A stretch of DNA of 50,043 bases from Girardia tigrina. Lineage: Eukaryota. The notes under the pieces are model-generated. The model made no database searches and was not told where the DNA came from. It saw only the letters and a list, made by a program, of their open reading frames with translations. Below, in pieces: positions 32,425-50,043 of the stretch. Positions within the stretch are counted from its first letter, which is position 1. Each line of letters starts with the position of its first letter. The stretch covers positions 1 to 50,043 of the forward strand of contig MQRK01214337.1 in the NCBI GenBank assembly GCA_001938485.1, given 5' to 3'. The position numbers and the translations under genes are program-made.

Positions 32425-35400
32425 TGTGAGGAATGTTTTGAATTGTGTGTTGATATTGTGTTGTATGTTGATTCGGATTGTGCCTCTCCTACACAGATGG
32501 ATGATTAATATTTTCTTCGATTCCTACTAATTAAAAATAATTTCATTTAATTTTAAAGTAAAAAGATTTAAAATAATTTTTGAATGTATTCATTTTTTAA
32601 TGTAATTTAAAATTTTAATATTATAATTTAATATGTACTTTTTTTTTAAAAAAATGTTTAGATTTAATTTTAAACAATTAGATTCTTTATAATTAATAAT
32701 TTTTATTAACAGATTTTCATTTATTGAAAATAATTAGTATGAAAGCAGAAATATATTAATCAAGAAAAATGTTTAATATTGAATGCGCTTGTAAATGGTA
32801 ATAAATGTTTTAAAACTCATATTGATGTTGTTAATATGGCGACCACAGCTCATGTGACAACAAGCATTATGGGACACGAAAAATGGATCTAAGTCGAAAT
32901 TAGATGACTTCATAAAAAATTCGAACGTTCTGCTGATATTACGGGTATAACAGAAGATAGAAGATTAGTGATGGTGACGATCTTCATGACTCCATCAGTA
33001 ATCACAAAATTTTCAGAAGCAGATGGAAATACGTATAAAGAAAAACTGAAAACGGCATTTGTGAAAGAAAAATCTCTGCTTGACACAATGAAGGATATTT
33101 TAAAAATTCGGTGGGGATCTTCAGATCCGGAAGAAACGCTCAAAAAAGTCGAAGAATTAGTAACGATATAGGTTTACTGGACGCGTCATTTTGACGCATT
33201 TCGATTTTTTTTAGTAAAATTACAGAAAACCTTCTCATTTTTATTTTATCTCTTGTGCTGACTTTTATCAGTTTTTTTTCTATAAATGTATATCTCATAT
33301 TTTCATTTTTTANNTATTGTGTATAATTATATTGCTTTATAAGGGATTGTTTTTTCTTTACATATATGTTTCGGTCATGCGTCAAATTGACGCGTGCCGT
33401 AGAGATAGGTATATAAAAAATCTCCGTAAACCTAGTGTTAACAGAAAGTAAACTTTCTAAGAAAAAGCTGTTCAACCTTGTTTGTATGAATATGGTTGAC
33501 GATTATGAGGTGAAAAGAGAATTGAAATTGAGAGGAGCTACCGAAACAAAGGACATAAAAGATATAGTTTCAAATATGTATGAACTACGCAAAATGGAAA
33601 AAGAAGAAACAGTTGCGGCATACAATACGGTAGGTAAACATGATGAATGGAAAACGATAGGCAAACGTAAATTACACTATAAAGAACACAACCAACTGTC
33701 CAAATATAAATTGTTCTTATTGAAATAAAAATGGCCATATCAGGACGCAATGTACATGAACAAGAATAGATTTAAAGAAAGAGACCAAGATGCCAGAAAA
33801 AATGAATGGCAAAGAACAAATAACCAACGACATCAACAGAGGCATCAAAATCGAAGATATGATATTGTAGAAATGCATGATGACAACGATTACAACGAAT
33901 ATAAAGAAACACGATCAAATGAAGGAAATTCGAGGCAAAGAATGTTTACAGATAATAGACAAGTATACGACAAAGACCAGGGAAACGAGGATGCACGATC
34001 ACAAGGAGAGGTGATCAGTGTGCATCACTAAAAAGTAAAAATAAGTGTGTATGTGATTGTGTATGTAATGGTATGTATGACTGTATGTGTGATTGTGTGT
34101 TGGAAGATACCCCTCTTGAAGTTTGTGAATTAGATTGTTCGAAAGAAGAATTTGAAACATACTGTTTTGATAAGGAGATAAAGACAAAATCGAAAAAGTT
34201 GAAACAGGAAGAAATGTTGAAAATATCAAAGCTCAATATTAGATATGACAAATTGAATGGAAGACCAAGCATTGAATTTAATACAAAGAATATGAATGTT
34301 GAATGTCTGTTGGATACCGGTGCCAAAGTAAATGTTGTTAAAGCAGATATACTTAAAAGTATGAAAGATGTTCAGATAAAGAAAACGAGTAAACGCATTC
34401 ATTGTGCAAATGATTCAGAATTTATAAATTATGGAATTGTTAAATTAAAAGTAATAATTGAAGGAGTACAAAAAATTATAGAGTTTTATGTAGTCAAAGA
34501 ACTCAATCCAGAAATGATAGCAGGAGTTGACTTTTTAGACAAATTTGGAATAAACATAAAGAAGAAAACTATAGATTCAGGTGATATATGGAGGATTAGA
34601 GATAGACCAACAGATGATGACAGACCAAAGAGAATTAAATAAATATATAACACCAAAGTTGACAACAAACTAATGAGACTATTAACAGAATATAAATCAA
34701 CATTCATGGTTGACAAGTGGGATGTTGGGAAAACTTCCTTAACGAAACACAAAATAGAAACTCGTGGAGAACCAGTCTTAGTGAAGCCTTATCGACTACC
34801 ACAACATTTTGAAGAGAAACTAGATGATGTCATTAGAAATTTAGAAGAAAACGGCATAATTGAAAAGTGTAGTTCTCCATGGAAATTACCTCTGGTGTGT
34901 GTATGGAAAAAAGAGAAACAAGACATCCAAGTATGAGTCGATTTTCGACAGTTAAATAAAATTACGGTAAGACCGGCATGCCAAATGTGGATGACATGTT
35001 AAACACGTTGAATGGAGCAAAATATTTTAGTACAATCGATCTGGGAAATGCATATTATCAGGTTGAATTAGAAGAAGATTCAAAGATTAAAACTACGTTT
35101 TCAACAAAGAATGGTCAATCTTGTTTTAAAAGAATGCCTTTCGGAATTGCAGCGGCTCCAGCTACCTGTCAAGAATTAATGGTGAAAGTTCTAGGCGATT
35201 TGAATTGGAAAGAAGCAGTCGTATATTTGGATGATATTTTGATTTTTGCAAAAGATAGAGAAGAACATCTTCAAAGAATACATAACGTATTTGAGAAAAT
35301 TAAAGAATCCGGCTTGAGAATAAATCCAGAGAAATGTCAATTCCTAGTAGAAAAAAACGAAATTTTTAGGATATGTCATAAGTAAAGAAGGTATAGAGAC

Positions 35401-37428
35401 GGATAAAACAAAGATTTATGCAATTAGAAAATTTCAAAACCCATCATGTATCAAACATTTAAGAAGCTTTTTGGGTTTGACGAATTACTACCGGAAATTC
35501 ATAAAGGATTACGCTAGATATGCAAATGTTTTAGAAGGCTTATGTGGTAAGAGCAAGGATAAAAACTGATTTGGACTGAAGAATGTGATGAAGCTTTTCA
35601 AAAAAAAAATAAAATTAAAAAATAAAAAATTAAAAGAAAAAATGATTAAGACACCAATTTTGGCATACTCTAATTTTTCAAAAGACTTTATACTCGACAC
35701 AGAGGCAAGTTTTGATACAATAGGAGCGGCGCTATCACAGAAAGATACGTGTTAAAGAGAAAGAGTAATTGCATATGGTTCCCATAAAATGAATAAACAT
35801 GAACTTGGTTATTGCATTACAAGGAAAGAACTACTTGCAATTTATTATTTCACTCAACATATTAAACATTTTTTGTATGGGAAAAGATTTTTGTTACGAA
35901 TGGATCATAAAGCTATCACTTTTATGATGACTACGAAAAACCCTATTACACCACAGTTTCAAACATGGATAAATTTTCTGAGTGGTCTTGATATGAAAAT
36001 AGAATATCGGAAAGGTGAGAAACATTCAAATGCTGACGCAATGTCTAGAAATTCTTGCGAATTATGTAGCCAGTGTCAGACAATGCATGAAGAAGCCAAG
36101 AAAGGAAAGATCAAAACGGGAATTCTTGCATTGAACGAAGAGTCAGAGGGTTTCAAATGGAAAAAGAATAATGAAGAAATAAAACAAATTGTTGAAGATA
36201 TCAGAAACGGGAAAACGAGGAAATGGACACTAAAAATGACATCGTGGCAACTCAGGACAATAAATACTGGATCCCAAAAGAAAAACGAACAGATTTTATT
36301 GAAGAGATGTATAAGCTGTTATGCCATGCTGGTAGTAAAAAAGTCTATAACTATCTTCGAGAAGATTTTGACATGGAAAATATGAGGAATTTCATTAAAG
36401 AAATAGTCTAAAGTTGTTTAAATTGTCAAAAAAGAAAGACATTAACAGAGAAAACGAAAGAAAAACATATAAAATTGTCGGCAGATGAACCTTTCCAGAA
36501 AATATACATGAACTTCCATGGACCATTCAAAAGAAACATAAACGGATATCAATACGTACTTGCAATAGTAGACCAATTCAGTAGATATATTAGCCTGAAT
36601 GCAGTTTCTAGTCAAGATGAAAAAACAGTTCGTAGAGTGATATTGGACAGATGGATATGGAAATTTTGACCTGCAAAAGAAATAAATGTTGATAGAGGAA
36701 AAACATTTGAATCGGCTTTGTTCAGAGATACAGTTAAAAGGTTCAAAGTCGAGATAATCTATTCAAATCCATATCATCATAATACAAATTGGATAGTGGA
36801 AAGACAATTTCGAACAATCAGAGATGCTATAAATATTAGAATGAAGGACGGAGACCACAGAGATTGGACAAAAAATTTGTCGGAAATAGAATTTATGTTG
36901 AATAGTATAGTTAAAGTTACGACATGTGTTTCACCGGCTGAAATAATATTTGGGAGACGATTAAGACATTGGTGGAAGAACAATAAAGAAACTAACGAAA
37001 ACCAAGTTAATGTCGAACAAAATGTAGAGACAAGAAGAGTTTTTGAAGTTGGAGACAGAGTGTTGATAAAAAAAGAAAAAATATCAAAAGAACATGACCG
37101 TTACATGGGTCCGGCAATTGTGTTGAAACGAAATCACGAAAGGAGTTACGAGTTACAGCTCGAAGATGGTAGAACTTTGATTAGAAATGTTGAATGGTTA
37201 AAGCCATTTAAACCGAGGGGGATGTGAGGAATGTTTTAAATTGTGTGTTGATATTGTGCATGTAGAATGTTGATTCGGATTGTGCCTCTCCTATACAGAT
37301 GGATGATTAAATTTTCTTTGATTCTTACTAATTAAAAATAATTTCATTTAATTTTAAAGTAAAAAGATTTAAAATAATTTTTGAATGTATTATTTATTTT
37401 TTAATGTAATTTAAAATTTTAATATTAT
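32425..37428 (+). mobile_element. Ty3/Gypsy LTR retrotransposon, pseudogenised, antisense within TTBK intron
   Basis: 5' LTR starts at TGTGAGGAATG (32425 to ~32836); PBS-like TGGCGACC at 32837. Gag fragments, protease LLDTGAKVNV, RT YLDD, RNase H ILDTEASFDTIGAALSQ, integrase (CHAG..CLNCQK, DRGKTF, IVERQFRTI, MGP). Purine tract GAGGGGGA at 37215-37222. The 3' LTR from 37223 matches the 5' LTR for ~205 bp and is then truncated. Confidence 0.95.
33169..33437. mobile_element. piggyBac-derived MITE nested in Gypsy gag
   Basis: Right end GTAAACCTAGTG|TTAA (33438-41). Left end TAGGTTTAC has lost the TTAA and first 3 nt. Internal GCGTCATTTTGACGC / GCGTCAAATTGACGC palindromes resemble piggyBac transposase-binding repeats. 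Removal rejoins gag KVEELVTI-LTESKLS. Confidence 0.8.
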
Positions 37429-43558: not shown

Positions 43559-46125
43559 CAAATTGTGAATAAATTTGAATACAATTGGCAAAATGTCGAA
43601 TAAAAAATTTACAAGACAATCAAAATTAATAATTTAACAATAAATAACAGTTCGATTAGTGGGTATACGGTAGTTTAAATTATTATACGAAATAAAAACC
43701 AGGTGTAAAAGTATCAATCCCGGGATAGCGAAATTATAAAAAAGAAAATCCCGAAATTCTGGGATCGTAAAATTGACCGGGCTAGCCAGCCCTATTATAA
43801 TCGTGAAGAATATTTTTAATTTTGTATGAATGTGGTGTGTTTATTTGAGTGTGGTTAAATCGGAATTTTGATTCCCCCACTCTCTTGGAAAATTGGTGCT
43901 GATCATTCGAACGGATTTGCATTTTTAAAATTAATGAAAATTTAATTATCTGATAAAATTTATAAATAAAAAAGTAATATAATATTATTTATAAAATAAG
44001 TTGTATTTTTTAGAAATTAAAATAAACATTTGTAATGTTTGAAGTAAATACATTTTAGAGGTTTGAATAATTTTTAAATTAGTTTAACTATTTTTAATAA
44101 TTTTATGAAATATTTTCAAGTTGAGATAATATTAAATGTTATTGAAAAATTAGGAAATTTTTTTGAATAATCATAATTAAAAATTCATAAACAGCACTAA
44201 TTAGAATGATGACAAAAGGTGAAAGAACTTCTCAGAGTTGTGTAATTAAAATCAAAGATCAACTGATCTTCTCAGAGTTAATTACAACGATACAGGTGAT
44301 TCTTTTGTTATTGGAACTTTTGATATTGGCTAGTCGAAACGTTAGTCTAACGTTAAATAAATGTCACGAATAAAAAAATGAAAATATCACAGGAATTAGT
44401 CAAAAATGAAAGGCGATGAAATTGTCATTTTTTTATTGTCGGTAAGCAATTTAGAATTAAAATTTATTAATTCTGTATTGATTTCGATTTGAATTTAAAT
44501 ATTCAAATCGAAATCATATAATCATAAAATAATAATTTTATGACGATATAATATAATTAGATTTCTTTCCTTCTTTCTCGACCTTCTTTATCTTTTCTTC
44601 TTTTTCTTCCAAATAAAATAATCTTCTTATTCTTATAATTCTTCTTCTTCTTCCAAATAAAATAATCCAAAAAAATAAATAAAATAAAATAATCTACAAA
44701 TTTCATCAGTAAATGATCAAACACTATTATATAACAGGAAGGCGTTTAAAATTTGAAAGTATCGCGTTAGATTAAACTGAATATTTTTTCGTCCCAAAAG
44801 AAAATAAAAATATGAATTACATAAGAACAAAAGGTTGTCAGACTCATACAAAAAAAAACAAATACATTTACATGAGCTAAAAAGATAAAAAAAATACACG
44901 TAGTTGTTAGTAGACTATTACAGTTGACCCACCTATGAATACGGAGTGTAATGGATGTATAAAATTAATTTGATATTTCGTGAGTTGTGAATTTTATCTT
45001 TGTTGATAATTTTGTGCGTTACTGTGAGGTTATTACACATAGTAATTGTGTCGGTTCTCTTAACAATAATACATATATTTTTTATCTTTATAATTCTTTG
45101 TTAGATTAAATATAATAAATATACAATAATTCATATCACACTCAGAATTTCTCACTCGTGTATCGGTTTAAAACATTATAAAACAATTGAAAGATATATT
45201 GCGACCACTTTACTTCATTGTCTTTTATGCTACTTGTAGCTATTAAATTTAAGAAAAAAAATATAAATAGGACATTTAGCTTAATAAATAACCAAAGTAC
45301 TTAACTCTTTAATATAATAAACGACAATTAGTAACAACGTTATAAAATTCGGTAATTTAAATTAATTTATTTAAATCACTTAAACTGTTGAACCAGTTTT
45401 GATTGAAACTTCTCATAAGATTTCTAAATTAGTATTGTGTTGACGTTATGTTTTGTAACTGAAATTTGAAAGATACGTACAGTACAAAATGAATAACGCT
45501 TATGTTTAATTGACATCCGGAAAGATAGGTTCCGAGGTATAATATAATTATTTATGTAAGAGGTTTTAAACCTTTTTGTTTGTCTACTTCTTTCACATTT
45601 GGCAAAAATGGAAGCAACCCTTCATATTAAAGTGAAATATTTCTTATGATTATTGCTCGCTTCTTTTATATGATGCATTTTATCATATAACGCGTTGTAA
45701 TAAAAAACGCTGTGTACATAGTAGTGATGTTGTTTTTTAAGATAGTATATATTTAAGAGAGTATATATGAAAGACTTGTTTAAAAATTTCATCATTGAAA
45801 AAACTGAAACTACCCTCAGGGTTATGTGCACTCCTGATTGGGAACCACTGGTCTAAAAAAGTCTTTTAAAAAAATGTTTGAAAAAAAATTAATAGTATAA
45901 GTATTTTGGTAAAGTCAAAAAATTTCAAGTACCCCCAGAGTGCCATTGGTCTATGTATATTTACGTATTTATATAGTATCAAAGTGTTATATCTATTTAT
46001 TTTAAATTATTTTTTTACCTCATGCACAGGTTAAGCCTATTCCTTGATCAAATCAGATAAAATTTCAATTTCAAAAGTTTTTAGTACACCAATAAACATT
46101 TTTACATCAAGAAACTACATTCTTT

Positions 46126-49100
46126 TGCAGTTTCACCAGAAATAGAACAACAAAGTTTATTTAAGTACAACACAAAAATTCAACTTTTGTTTTTTATCAC
46201 TTATTTAAACAAATTTACTTTCGAATATTTAACAACATTATTACATCCCCACCAAAAATCAGGTATCCATTTCTTAATCTCTATGCCACGGTGGTTCTCT
46301 TCTCTCTCGTTTGTTTCTGCGTTGCTTGTCACGATTTGTTTGGTCCATGATCTTTTCAACACTCGACCTCTCATCAACTGCTTCGCTCTCGTTTTCACTG
46401 CTTTCTAAATCATCAAAAACTCGTTTTCAGGATTATTCTGATTGTCAGATCGTTTTCTGATATCCTGAATATGTCTCGGAACTCCGTCTACTTCGTATTT
46501 GTTGTGACTAATTTTTGCTGTGATTATAACCCGACCCCATTGACTTGTTCATCGAACATGTTGACTCAGCTTGACATACACTTTCTCTTCTACTTCTTAC
46601 ATTCTACAGTCGTCGCTCATCGGTTCCACGTTTATTTTTTCACCTGTTATCCTCCAATTATAGTTAAATAATATATCACTTGGCGATTTAATTCCATATT
46701 TTCTACTTTTAAGGACCTATATTATACCAATACATAGCTTTAGCAATAGCAATATTCGATCTCTCCGCTATTCTTTTTATCGTATGGTGACAGCGCTCCA
46801 CAATACCGTTCGAACTGGATCTATGCGCACATCGATAGTCTATCTTAACACTCCATTTAATACGCAAGTGTTTGAATTTGCCACCTGTAAAAGCTACTCC
46901 ATTGTCAACAAGGATTTCTGTGGGAGCCCCATGCTCCATAAATAATTCATCGAGAATTTTTATTACGTCATCGGTTCCTTCAGTTTTTACTTCTCTCCAA
47001 ATAGAAAATCGAGTGGGTCCACAATCAATTACTGATAAATACACTCTATTCTCGTAATTAGTATGATCTATAGCCAATCTTTCCCAACATTTGTCTACCG
47101 ATAATGATCCCTTTTGTGTTTTTATAGGGGCGGGATCAATACTGCTACACCGTTGACATTTTCGAACAACACTATCCATATCCTTTTTCGACACTTCAAT
47201 ACCTTCTTTTTCTGCTATCAGACAGCTTTTCTCGATCCCAAAATGATGTCGCTCATGACTCTTTCTTGCCTCATTTAATTTTCTCTCTTGTTGAACAATA
47301 CAACATTTCCTTTCTGTCCATTTTCTTGGTACTCTAGTTAAGACATCTGCCTTGTTTAGTTCAGAGCGAACCCAATCACACTATCAAAATATTTCGGACT
47401 CATTTAAAATACTGTCTATCATAGCCAAACGTCTCTTGACCAATATCTCACTCATTCCGGTTACTTTTATTCGACTTTTTCTTGTCTTCAACGATGCCAG
47501 CCAACCATGTACTATAACTGAATCTGTAACAATTAATAATTTCTTCACATTCCACTTCAAAGCCAAGTTAATTCCTTTCATAATCGCTTCAAGTTCAGCA
47601 ATGCTTATACGTACACAATCATTTTCTTGTCTTAACCAGGTTCCATCTTCGATCACATGGTCTCCGATTTGCAAAACACATCCGATGGCAATAGAACTTG
47701 CATCGCACCATATCGCACATTTTCGGTTCATATCCACATTCCAACGACCTCGTACTCGATCTGAATTACTAATACGATTCATTACTTCACGAATAAAATT
47801 AATAGACTCTTCATTCACCGATTCATTCCATTGTAATCCATTACACGACCGTTTTATGTAGCTACACACAACCAATTTCCAATTGGGTAATGACTAATTA
47901 ATTTTTCACAAACCGAATATACACCTCTTCTAGTGATCTTATCTGGGACGTTCAAGGGAAAGGAGTACTCCTCGATCAGTTTAATAGTCCATCACATTGA
48001 GACAATTGAAGACCAAGAACTCTCGCTCCGTTTAGGTCCTCTGAATCTTTACATTGTAAATCGTACTTCAATAAATGATTCCGTACTTCTTCTATGCTCA
48101 CTATGTCTTCATTTACAATGATATCATCTACATAATGACGAGTTCCACGGCGAACTTTTTCATCAATAGACAAAACCTTTCCTAAAATCATGAACACTAT
48201 TTTCGAAGCGGATACTAAACCAAATCCTAATCTTGTGAGCTCGTAAAATTCACTAATAATCCGGACTCTCTGATACTTCCATAAAGTTGAATCTACTTCG
48301 ATTTGTAAATATACATTTTTCACGTCGATAACTTTGCAATTCTTTGGCATACTTCTCCACTCACGAAGCTCGTCATCCACTGATACTGCATCTAATGTAT
48401 GAGAACTAATAAACTGATTCAACTCTCGATAATCCATGACAGGCCTTACTTTATCCTTTTTTTCTTGTTTAACCGCAAGCAACGGTATAATTCCTTCTCC
48501 ATCACTATTTAAACTTTTCTTTAACCAACCCTCACTAATACAACCCTGTAGTACCTCATGAAACTTTATTCTGGTGTCTTTATCCATATGGTAACTCGCT
48601 ACTTTATTTGACAACTGAGGCGTTATATCTTTCTATTTCCACTTTACTTCCCACTTCCGTCCAGTAAATTTCGCATTAAAATCAATATCATTTATTTCGA
48701 GATTTATTTGTTTTGCACCGCTTTGATACAACTTTTTACTCGAAAATGAATCAATATTATTTCTCTCACTATTCAACTGTGTTGCGCCGCTATGATACAC
48801 CTCTTTACTCCACGAAACACAACCTTTACTATCAATTTTAATACCTCCTCCTGTCATTATTCCATCCATGCCAATAATTAAATCTACATCTTTTACTAAC
48901 TCGCTCATAACTAAACAATTTAATCTCAATATCACATTAGACTCTGACTCAATCTCTATCTCACACTCTCCAAGCACAGCTACTTCATTTCCATCAACTG
49001 CCTTAACACACACATTAGACTCAATCATCTTATCTCTACCCAATTCATTTCTTACAATACTCACATCATTCCCACTATCAATAAGAGTATTAACCCACTT

Positions 49101-49600
49101 ACTTCACCATCATCCGCATAGGCACCTTTCTATACGTACAAGAATAGGCGGTGCCAACTATTCTTGGTTTAAGTTTAAATGATTGTTCTTTTTACATTCG
49201 TTCGCTTTATGACCCCCTCCTCCACAGCTAAAACATTTAAACGTATTACTTAACATACACTCCTTGGCTATATGCCCAACCTTCACACACGAAAAGCACT
49301 TCAGCATAGAGGTTTTTTGACGCCTCTCATCCGCCTGATAGAGTTCGTCCTTGGGCTTTTGCGATATTTTATAAGAATCCCCGCCACGAATGAATTACAT
49401 CGCGCCCTGATAAAGCTCTATAACTCGGACATACCGTAACTTCGCCTCTCATTTCGTTAATTATGATCCTGGCCTTTTCCACTAACTTACTTTGCGATAT
49501 CTCGTCTAATTCTATTAATGTTTTAATTTGACTAGCACATGATCGGGTAAACAGCTTAAGAAATAACATTTAAATATTTGATCATTGGACAGGAAACCGT
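46126..49600 (-). mobile_element. Second Ty3/Gypsy element, 5'-truncated and pseudogenised
   Basis: Gag C-half (NDQIFKCYFLSCLPDHV..KLVEKARII), two CCHC knuckles (CFSCVKVGHIAKEC, CFSCGGGGHKANEC), protease LIDSG, RT YVDD, RNase H WCDASS/AELEAI/TDS, integrase HFG..CQRC, VDNG, NGIVERCH. Purine tract GGTGGGGA precedes a candidate short 3' LTR TGTAAT...AATAAA...CTGCA (46245-46126). Confidence 0.92.
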
Positions 49601-49604
49601 GTCT

Positions 49605-49892
49605 TCATGTTGTTTTGGACAGAGAGGTGGACAGAAAACGGTAATAATCGCCTTTCATTTTATGAATTTCCTCTAGTGTCTCATCATCAATCTCCAAAGT
49701 CGTCACTGTTTCCTCTACATCACTCAAAGTCATATTTAAATGTGAATCAAAAGCATTTAATTTGCCTCGTAATTCTCTATCGTTTTTTATTTTAACGTAA
49801 ATTCGCTCATTTAAGCTCAATCGAATCAGATCGAGTGGCTCATCGATTACGGAAATGTCAGAATTTAAAACGTTACCAGAAATCGGATCCAT
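49605..49892 (-). pseudogene. LSM3: U6 snRNA-associated Sm-like protein LSm3, intronless copy with C-terminal deletion/frameshift
   Basis: [61 protein letters not shown] is clearly LSm3. The expected STKRNIPMLFV-like segment is missing. KGD is followed by ITVFCPPL (cf. RGDGVVLVAPPL) only in a shifted frame. Confidence 0.8.
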
Positions 49893-50043
49893 TTAAATTT
49901 GGTTTATCAATTTATTCTTTTTTATTAATTGAAAATTAAAAAACGCGATTTGCCATTGAAACTTGTTTATTATTTTTAAAAATTGGATTTTGAAAAATTG
50001 TGAAAGAAAATTGTTAATTGTGATTACAATTCAAATTTAACAT

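Follow-up and report, generated by a model that had tools for sequence, protein, structure and literature searches.

The window analysed here is a 50,043-nt stretch of DNA from Girardia tigrina (contig MQRK01214337.1, positions 1 to 50,043 of the forward strand). Toward its end, a decayed Gypsy retrotransposon is interrupted by the 3′ part of the long terminal repeat (LTR) of a BEL/Pao retrotransposon, which carries a spliced fragment of the host gene LSM3 and a remnant of a host 14-3-3 gene. The features of the locus, in window coordinates unless a contig position is given, are as follows.

46126..46245, minus strand: Gypsy 3′ LTR; partner LTR at contig 53882-53766, target-site duplication (TSD) AAAGA on both sides
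46246..49585, minus strand: Gypsy internal region, interrupted and decayed; 3′ part of gag with two zinc knuckles, protease, reverse transcriptase (RT), RNase H and integrase, with several stops and frameshifts
49581..49585, minus strand: TSD ATGAT; other copy at contig 53413-53409
49586..50043, minus strand: BEL/Pao LTR, 3′ 458 bp, ending in ...TGTCCA; sharp 3′ end common to all copies, flanks unrelated
49586..49628, minus strand: constant LTR terminus, holding a private stop (49607-49605) and the codons for RHGFLS
49629..49661, minus strand: 14-3-3 coding remnant, 33 bp (11 residues); AAAA overlap with LSM3 at 49661-49658; 31/33 identity to the middle of exon 2 of the 14-3-3 parent (L103)
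49659..49900, minus strand: processed LSM3 fragment; final 5′ UTR bases, ATG (49892) and codons 1-78, corresponding to exons 1-3 with introns 1 and 2 excised exactly
49892-49608, minus strand: 95-codon ORF with an LSM domain (PF01423, E = 2e-13); first 78 codons LSm3-like
49901..49917, minus strand: likely spliced 14-3-3 5′ UTR relic, 5′ of the LSM3 cargo, assigned in the window copy from 14-3-3-bearing LTRs

An intronless LSM3 fragment joined to 14-3-3 sequence

The intact LSM3 parent (L102, contig C145249) has three GT-AG introns of 61, 81 and 49 bp. The first two are exactly missing from the window copy, in agreement with the initial annotation, which had called it intronless and had pointed to an intron-containing parent as the thing to look for. 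The LSM3 cargo is 92.6–97.9% identical to exons 1–3 of the parent, from which it differs by 4 non-synonymous and 5 synonymous changes. It ends at the exact end of exon 3 and lacks exon 4, the 3′ UTR and any poly(A). The Pfam LSM match in the window ORF covers only positions 3–45 of the 66-position profile; because exon 4, which encodes the Sm2 motif, is missing, the cargo does not have the Sm1 and Sm2 pair of a functional LSm3. What had been described as a ~10-codon deletion with a frameshift in Sm2 is explained by the LSM3 sequence breaking off at codon 78 and giving way to 33 bp of coding sequence from 14-3-3 (49661-49629).

The 14-3-3 parent (L103, contig C225118) is a single match in the genome. 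Two LSM3 introns and two 14-3-3 introns have been lost exactly. In LTRs that carry a 14-3-3 cargo, a stretch like 49901..49917 precedes the 14-3-3 ATG and matches the parent UTR across a 52-bp GT-AG intron. These LTRs and the LSM3-bearing LTRs have both flanks in common, namely the spliced 14-3-3 5′ UTR relic upstream and the KMKGDYYR codons downstream, and hence the LSM3 piece appears to have replaced the middle of an older 14-3-3 cargo. As judged from the junction sequences, LSM3 would have taken the place of most of that cargo at short microhomologies.

Specifically, comparison with the LSM3 and 14-3-3 parents reveals CGAAAT at the LSM3 5′ junction and AAAA at the 3′ junction (8 of 9 with one mismatch). 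Among 200,000 random draws of switch points, overlaps of at least 6 nt occur in 0.25% and of at least 4 nt in 2.5%, figures to be read with the caveat that short overlaps arise easily in AT-rich sequence. The 14-3-3 cargo, for its part, breaks off within an exon, where CTGTCC matches the LTR tail. In addition, contigs of RNA-type runs for the host LSM3 and 14-3-3 mRNAs diverge from the window sequence at the junction points; these are public assembled contigs, of guessed RNA status for most, and show neither expression, strand nor ends. Contigs covering the LTR end and leader are present in one public run of guessed RNA type.

Between the TG-rich part of the LTR and the cargo ATG, window positions 50043-49918 form a highly variable mosaic of short AT-rich blocks with an extra ATG at 49956. 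This mosaic may represent stacked relics of older 5′ UTR captures, as demonstrated for 14-3-3 in one copy only (L075). A repeat search within window positions 46000-50043 returned nothing relevant. Elsewhere in the genome there are separate processed LSM3 copies (L095-L101 and further ones) that contain exon 4 and the 3′ UTR, several of which share a deletion in the 5′ half. Two of them, L095 and L097, have common upstream sequence and may ride in another repeat.

The LTR is inserted into an older Gypsy element

The initial annotation was right about the zf-CCHC, RT, RNase H and integrase remnants of the Gypsy and its 3′ LTR (46245-46126), as well as about the ORF stop TGA (49607-49605) and the lack of poly(A) at the junction. 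It had also described this Gypsy as lacking a 5′ LTR and a gag start, and had proposed extending the search beyond 50043. The window stops at a 3,247-base N gap, and past the gap on the same contig we found the 5′ end of the inserted LTR (53408), a second ATGAT, the gag start and the Gypsy 5′ LTR, the last two at contig 53882-53409. The insert thus spans from 49586 through the gap to contig 53408, 3.8 kb in all. The two Gypsy LTRs differ by 3 substitutions and one 3-base indel, and the element is flanked by AAAGA on both sides.

Because the TSD, the gag start and the Gypsy 5′ LTR lie across the gap, the contact between LSM3 and gag, which had been taken for an in-frame fusion and a capture junction, is an unremarkable site of nested insertion, marked by a 5-bp TSD. 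The residues RHGFLS, previously assigned to gag, are the last 6 codons of the inserted LTR, and the stop at 49607-49605 is private to the window copy, 38 of the 39 LSM3-bearing copies examined reading through that codon. All of the Gypsy siblings fetched (14/14) have the empty site with gag uninterrupted and no LSM3, with a 120-bp LTR about 350 bp upstream in 12 of them. Among the 40 scored matches, only the window locus spans the LSM3/gag junction.

The LTR closest to that of the window (99.0% identity over 402 bases) lies on contig C46465 (L002), which runs from the LTR into internal sequence and ends about 100 bases before a polypurine tract (PPT). Its length fits the gap, which suggests that the window insert is probably an internally deleted two-LTR copy that has decayed.

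At the Gypsy 5′ end (contig C214337:53882-53409), the LTRs are 120 bp long, no TGG-type primer-binding site (PBS) was seen after the 5′ LTR, and the gag frame is likewise open from inside the LTR. A repeat at window positions 33444-35855 is the empty-site form of an element that an LSM3 LTR interrupts at another locus (L006).

The carrier is a BEL/Pao retrotransposon

When the genome was searched with the LSM3 piece at the DNA level, 934 first-look candidates resulted, and the long matches among the 40 scored were 85–99% identical; at the protein level, 150 of 629 candidates were scored and yielded 158 matches. Because it has many matches in its own genome, the LSM3 piece belongs to a high-copy repeat and is not a single event. 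All copies end at one base (49586) with unrelated flanks, and start about 0.9–1.2 kb upstream at TGGAGCGG, giving an LTR length of about 1 kb. Full units number 23, of which 20 are distinct; among the distinct ones, 14 show an exact 5-bp TSD, 2 have a TSD with one mismatch, 2 are preceded by a PPT, and 2 have neither.

Genome-wide, we counted 444 exact 21-letter LTR 3′ ends, 131 exact PPT-LTR junctions and 144 PBS sites, a few of the last from related LTRs; controls gave zero in each case. The PBS sequence complements the 3′ terminus of a tRNA-Ile(AAT) gene of the host, for which there were 13 pattern matches (ARAGORN called 1 of the 4 fetched). The element has paired LTRs with TG...CA ends and a 5-bp TSD, a PBS after the 5′ LTR and a PPT before the 3′ LTR. 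Three copies (L079, L082 and L087) display the domain order DUF1759 gag, DUF1758 protease, RVT_1 RT, Peptidase_A17 (the Pao RNase H region), rve integrase and DUF5641. The carrier, assigned by domains, PBS, PPT and TSD, is a BEL/Pao retrotransposon.

Many copies (L056, L065, L083 and others) lack pol and have, after the protease region and just before the PPT, a long K/E-rich, coiled-coil-like ORF with no Pfam hit. Related LTR families (L197, L209, L210, L214, L228, L240 and L241) share the tRNA-Ile PBS and have different LTR ends; they are useful outgroups for dating the cargo slot. Loci L225-L227 consist of truncated 3′ fragments of the tRNA-Ile gene together with the sequence downstream of it, and some of them are tandemly arrayed on other contigs.

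One LTR slot holds many host cargos

LSM3 is one of many cargos at the same position, 40–75 bases from the PBS. Of the first 100 LTR ends listed, 82 were examined: 24 carry 14-3-3, 6 carry LSM3, 42 carry other sequences and 10 are too short. Nine of the 18 remaining ends are LSM3 hits from other searches, raising LSM3 to about 15 of 100. Further cargos identified by Pfam are Sec1, RNA polymerase subunit N (RPB10), longin/synaptobrevin, USP, ankyrin and MSP/VAP; the translations of seven other cargos gave no Pfam hit. Cargos whose front can be seen have sense orientation and start at or near the host ATG, and several cargos are mosaic. The same cargo is found in both LTRs of one element, as LSM3 in L238 (LTRs 97.6% identical) and as 14-3-3 in L082 and L075.

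The LSM3 cargo displays no amino-acid constraint, with 2 synonymous to 11 non-synonymous changes among shared variants and 14 to 41 among private ones. The initial annotation had raised a link to the role of Lsm and P-body factors, which finds no support in a cargo that lacks Sm2, is one of many and is unconstrained at the amino-acid level. For the 14-3-3 cargo, shared variants are enriched in synonymous changes (24:31, versus 28:96 for private variants, p = 0.007), an excess that could also stem from repeated capture or from conversion by the host gene.

Cargo and gag share a reading frame

The final LTR codons are in one frame with the PBS, a repeat leader, an Hsp90 fragment, ubiquitin and gag, in that order. 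In L202, 387 codons are open from the LTR to gag with no N and no stop, and in L208 the frame that opens at the RPB10 ATG runs over a single N gap and meets a stop close to the ubiquitin end. The PBS frame is held in at least one copy by 7 of the 8 Pfam-named cargos; VAP and the cargo of L109 are out of frame in the copies read. When 108 LTR ends are grouped into 23 clusters, the longest-open frame is the PBS frame in 16, the second frame in 4 and the third in 1, with 1 split and 1 closed; the clusters are non-independent, and these counts take the best copy per lineage and refer to alleles rather than to events on a tree. The spacer is 5 bases long in 31 of 34 cases and 6 bases in L236. L175, the sole second-frame cluster of the four with a PBS, has a 4-base spacer that restores the frame. 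Moreover, 146 of 152 leader repeat spacings are divisible by 3.

The changes within the LSM3 and 14-3-3 cargos follow the same pattern. Among variants shared by at least two copies, 5 of 6 indels are in frame, compared with 6 of 21 private ones (p = 0.027), and stops account for 0 of 81 shared substitutions, compared with 10 of 195 private ones (p = 0.037); these tallies, too, refer to alleles rather than to events on a tree.

A Hsp90 fragment and a whole ubiquitin lie in frame 5′ of gag in this BEL/Pao family (Pfam HSP90, E = 1e-27; ubiquitin, E = 9e-31). Copies with this fusion (L075, L076, L079, L082, L083, L084, L202, L217 and L247) have it in the internal region after the PBS. In-frame Met codons, including that of ubiquitin itself, are present downstream of the cargo, and Gag could start at these. 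The ubiquitin di-glycine is kept in 19 of 21 occurrences, and residue 74 is Cys in 13 of 21, a substitution that may impair cleavage. Two copies of related LTR families have canonical ubiquitin tails.

Proposed mechanism and alternative explanations

LSM3 is a cargo in the LTR of a BEL/Pao element that landed in an older Gypsy, and we consider it likely that this cargo entered by template jumping of RT, replacing most of a 14-3-3 cargo. RT would jump from the element RNA to a co-packaged LSM3 mRNA and back, at short matches. The slot would lie in R/U5, which RT copies first when it starts at the tRNA primer, giving minus-strand strong-stop DNA, a position that would explain both the sense-oriented mRNA fronts and the matching cargo in the two LTRs. 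After a jump to a host mRNA, RT would copy toward the mRNA 5′ end, and a return near the start codon would leave a sense mRNA front; AT-rich start-codon contexts may offer ready matches between any two mRNAs. Regeneration of the LTRs would then place the captured front into both. The end of the LSM3 piece exactly at the exon 3/4 border is not predicted by microhomology alone.

The initial annotation had called the LSM3 copy a reverse-transcription chimera rather than a LINE-type processed pseudogene. Its RNA-derived nature holds, LINE hallmarks are absent and LTR template switching is the best explanation; the capturing element, however, is the BEL/Pao retrotransposon and not the Gypsy. A LINE-type processed pseudogene was ruled out, the mRNA 3′ end and poly(A) both being missing.

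Two candidate landmarks of the LTR were rejected. AATAAA-like words before the cargo were considered as a poly(A) signal, and we claim no R/U5 border because the nearest such word sits in the likely 14-3-3 UTR relic. A short hairpin where the constant part of the LTR meets the variable part, considered as a start-site marker, folds no better than shuffled sequences (z = −0.10).

The cargo ATG likely opens the Gag frame; if so, only in-frame captures would spread well, and selection would hold the frame rather than the function of the cargo protein. The internal ubiquitin is putatively the site at which host proteases might release Gag from its variable front. A more tentative proposal is that the family borrows its start codon as a standing habit. 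Host mRNA fronts would repeatedly be taken at the first RT step, their 5′ UTR and ATG would open Gag, and ubiquitin would cut the borrowed piece off.

It is possible, though we would not presume it, that capture followed the same route and the cargo is neutral baggage, with Gag starting at ubiquitin or another downstream ATG and the upstream frames open only to avoid nonsense-mediated decay or upstream-ORF repression. The several in-frame Met codons downstream, the unconstrained LSM3 cargo and the free exchange of cargos fit such a reading. It would nevertheless still need translation from the cargo ATG to explain a frame kept over some 300 codons, and the synonymous enrichment of shared 14-3-3 variants speaks against it, though recapture or conversion could also produce that enrichment.

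An exon trap is unlikely. Here an element in a host intron, or trans-splicing, would splice exons of the host onto an acceptor site within the LTR, and the chimera would then be copied. This would account for an LSM3 cargo that stops precisely at the exon 3 donor and for cargos that are mRNA fronts, and in the available portion of Tan et al. 2016 (PMC5131818) the switch points of BLASTOPIA likewise lie near exon-exon junctions. However, the receiving side is the middle of a 14-3-3 exon with neither an intron nor an AG there, the 14-3-3 cargo has its own mid-exon end at the match to the LTR tail, and the LSM3 5′ junction would need a switch too.

Uptake of an existing LSM3 processed pseudogene by a Pack-type DNA transposon or a Helitron is highly improbable: most copies are solitary with short TGGA/TCCA ends, and separate processed LSM3 copies with exon 4 do exist, but a PBS, a PPT, paired repeats and Pao pol are joined to those ends, and the two-LTR copies L079, L082 and L238 refute it. 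Capture of LSM3 by the Gypsy itself through template switching, with loss of the 5′ LTR, PBS and gag start, can be dismissed, since the adjacency of LSM3 to the gag remnant on the same strand with aligned frames involves a 1-in-3 chance match and is countered by the 5′ end found across the gap, the ATGAT on both sides of the insert, the empty-site siblings and the unique junction.

Discussion

In the LTR-mediated captures known so far, internal genes are replaced and the element is in most cases crippled. In Ty1, the GAG start codon lies in the 5′ LTR and the frame crosses the PBS. The BEL/Pao family resembles Ty1 in having a frame that would start in the LTR and that passes through the PBS; the LTR-encoded N-terminus of Ty1, in contrast, is its own and not a replaceable host fragment. 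For the ubiquitin inserts of pestiviruses, a role in cleavage is established. As in cytopathic pestiviruses (PMC13517609, as far as the available part of that source describes them), captured ubiquitin lies in frame in a polyprotein, often within mosaic inserts; pestiviruses are, however, RNA viruses without reverse transcription, and the ubiquitin tail in the BEL/Pao family is often non-canonical, its role in cleavage being putative.

Host-derived sequence in both LTRs is also found in the TRIMs Cassandra, Helenus and Ajax. In the portions of the sources available (PMC10886601; bioRxiv 10.1101/2023.07.14.548913), these are non-coding elements with one fixed piece of a small-RNA gene that serves as a Pol III promoter, whereas the BEL/Pao family holds many exchangeable fronts of protein-coding mRNAs.

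Switching of the RT of LTR elements to a co-packaged mRNA and back at microsimilarity has been described by Tan et al. 2016 (PMC5131818), whose animal retrocopies, in the part of the paper available, include those mediated by Pao BATUMI (CG4799_CG11924_r) and Gypsy BLASTOPIA. By the same criteria, the LSM3 cargo is an intronless partial mRNA with an intron-containing parent, and its switch points show microsimilarity of 6 nt and 4 nt. The cases resemble each other in partial spliced host mRNAs, junction microsimilarity, multi-gene mosaics and further copying as non-autonomous elements, as well as in one junction near an exon-exon border. In contrast to the retrocopies covered there, which replace the internal ORF between the LTRs, LSM3 has its place within the LTR, and it is the Hsp90 and ubiquitin pieces that are internal. 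Furthermore, the BEL/Pao cargo is present in both LTRs and persists in lone ones, elements that have a long pol ORF (L087) carry it, and it is serially swapped and in frame with gag.

Template-switch capture was thus already known (Tan et al. 2016), and what appears new, as read from the genome sequence, is the LTR position, the serial exchange and the frame coupling. In full-text literature, which leaves out most subscription journals and Repbase, neither mRNA fragments inside BEL/Pao LTRs nor a fusion of ubiquitin to a retrotransposon gag turned up. The same literature also yielded no capture into an LTR in frame with Gag; subscription journals, Repbase and the supplements of Tan et al. 2016 may hold LTR-located cases.

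With its slot in the LTR, a capture reaches both ends of the element and lasts in lone LTRs, and elements that have a long pol ORF tolerate it. The slot is a natural record of illegitimate jumps in strong-stop synthesis and of co-packaged mRNAs. Cargo copies inflate LSM3 and 14-3-3 counts in annotation. The slot also provides a route to mass duplication of host gene fronts beside an LTR promoter. If the family does borrow its start codon, it would be a permanent source from which hundreds of host gene fronts, ATG-bearing and linked to a promoter, are scattered genome-wide.
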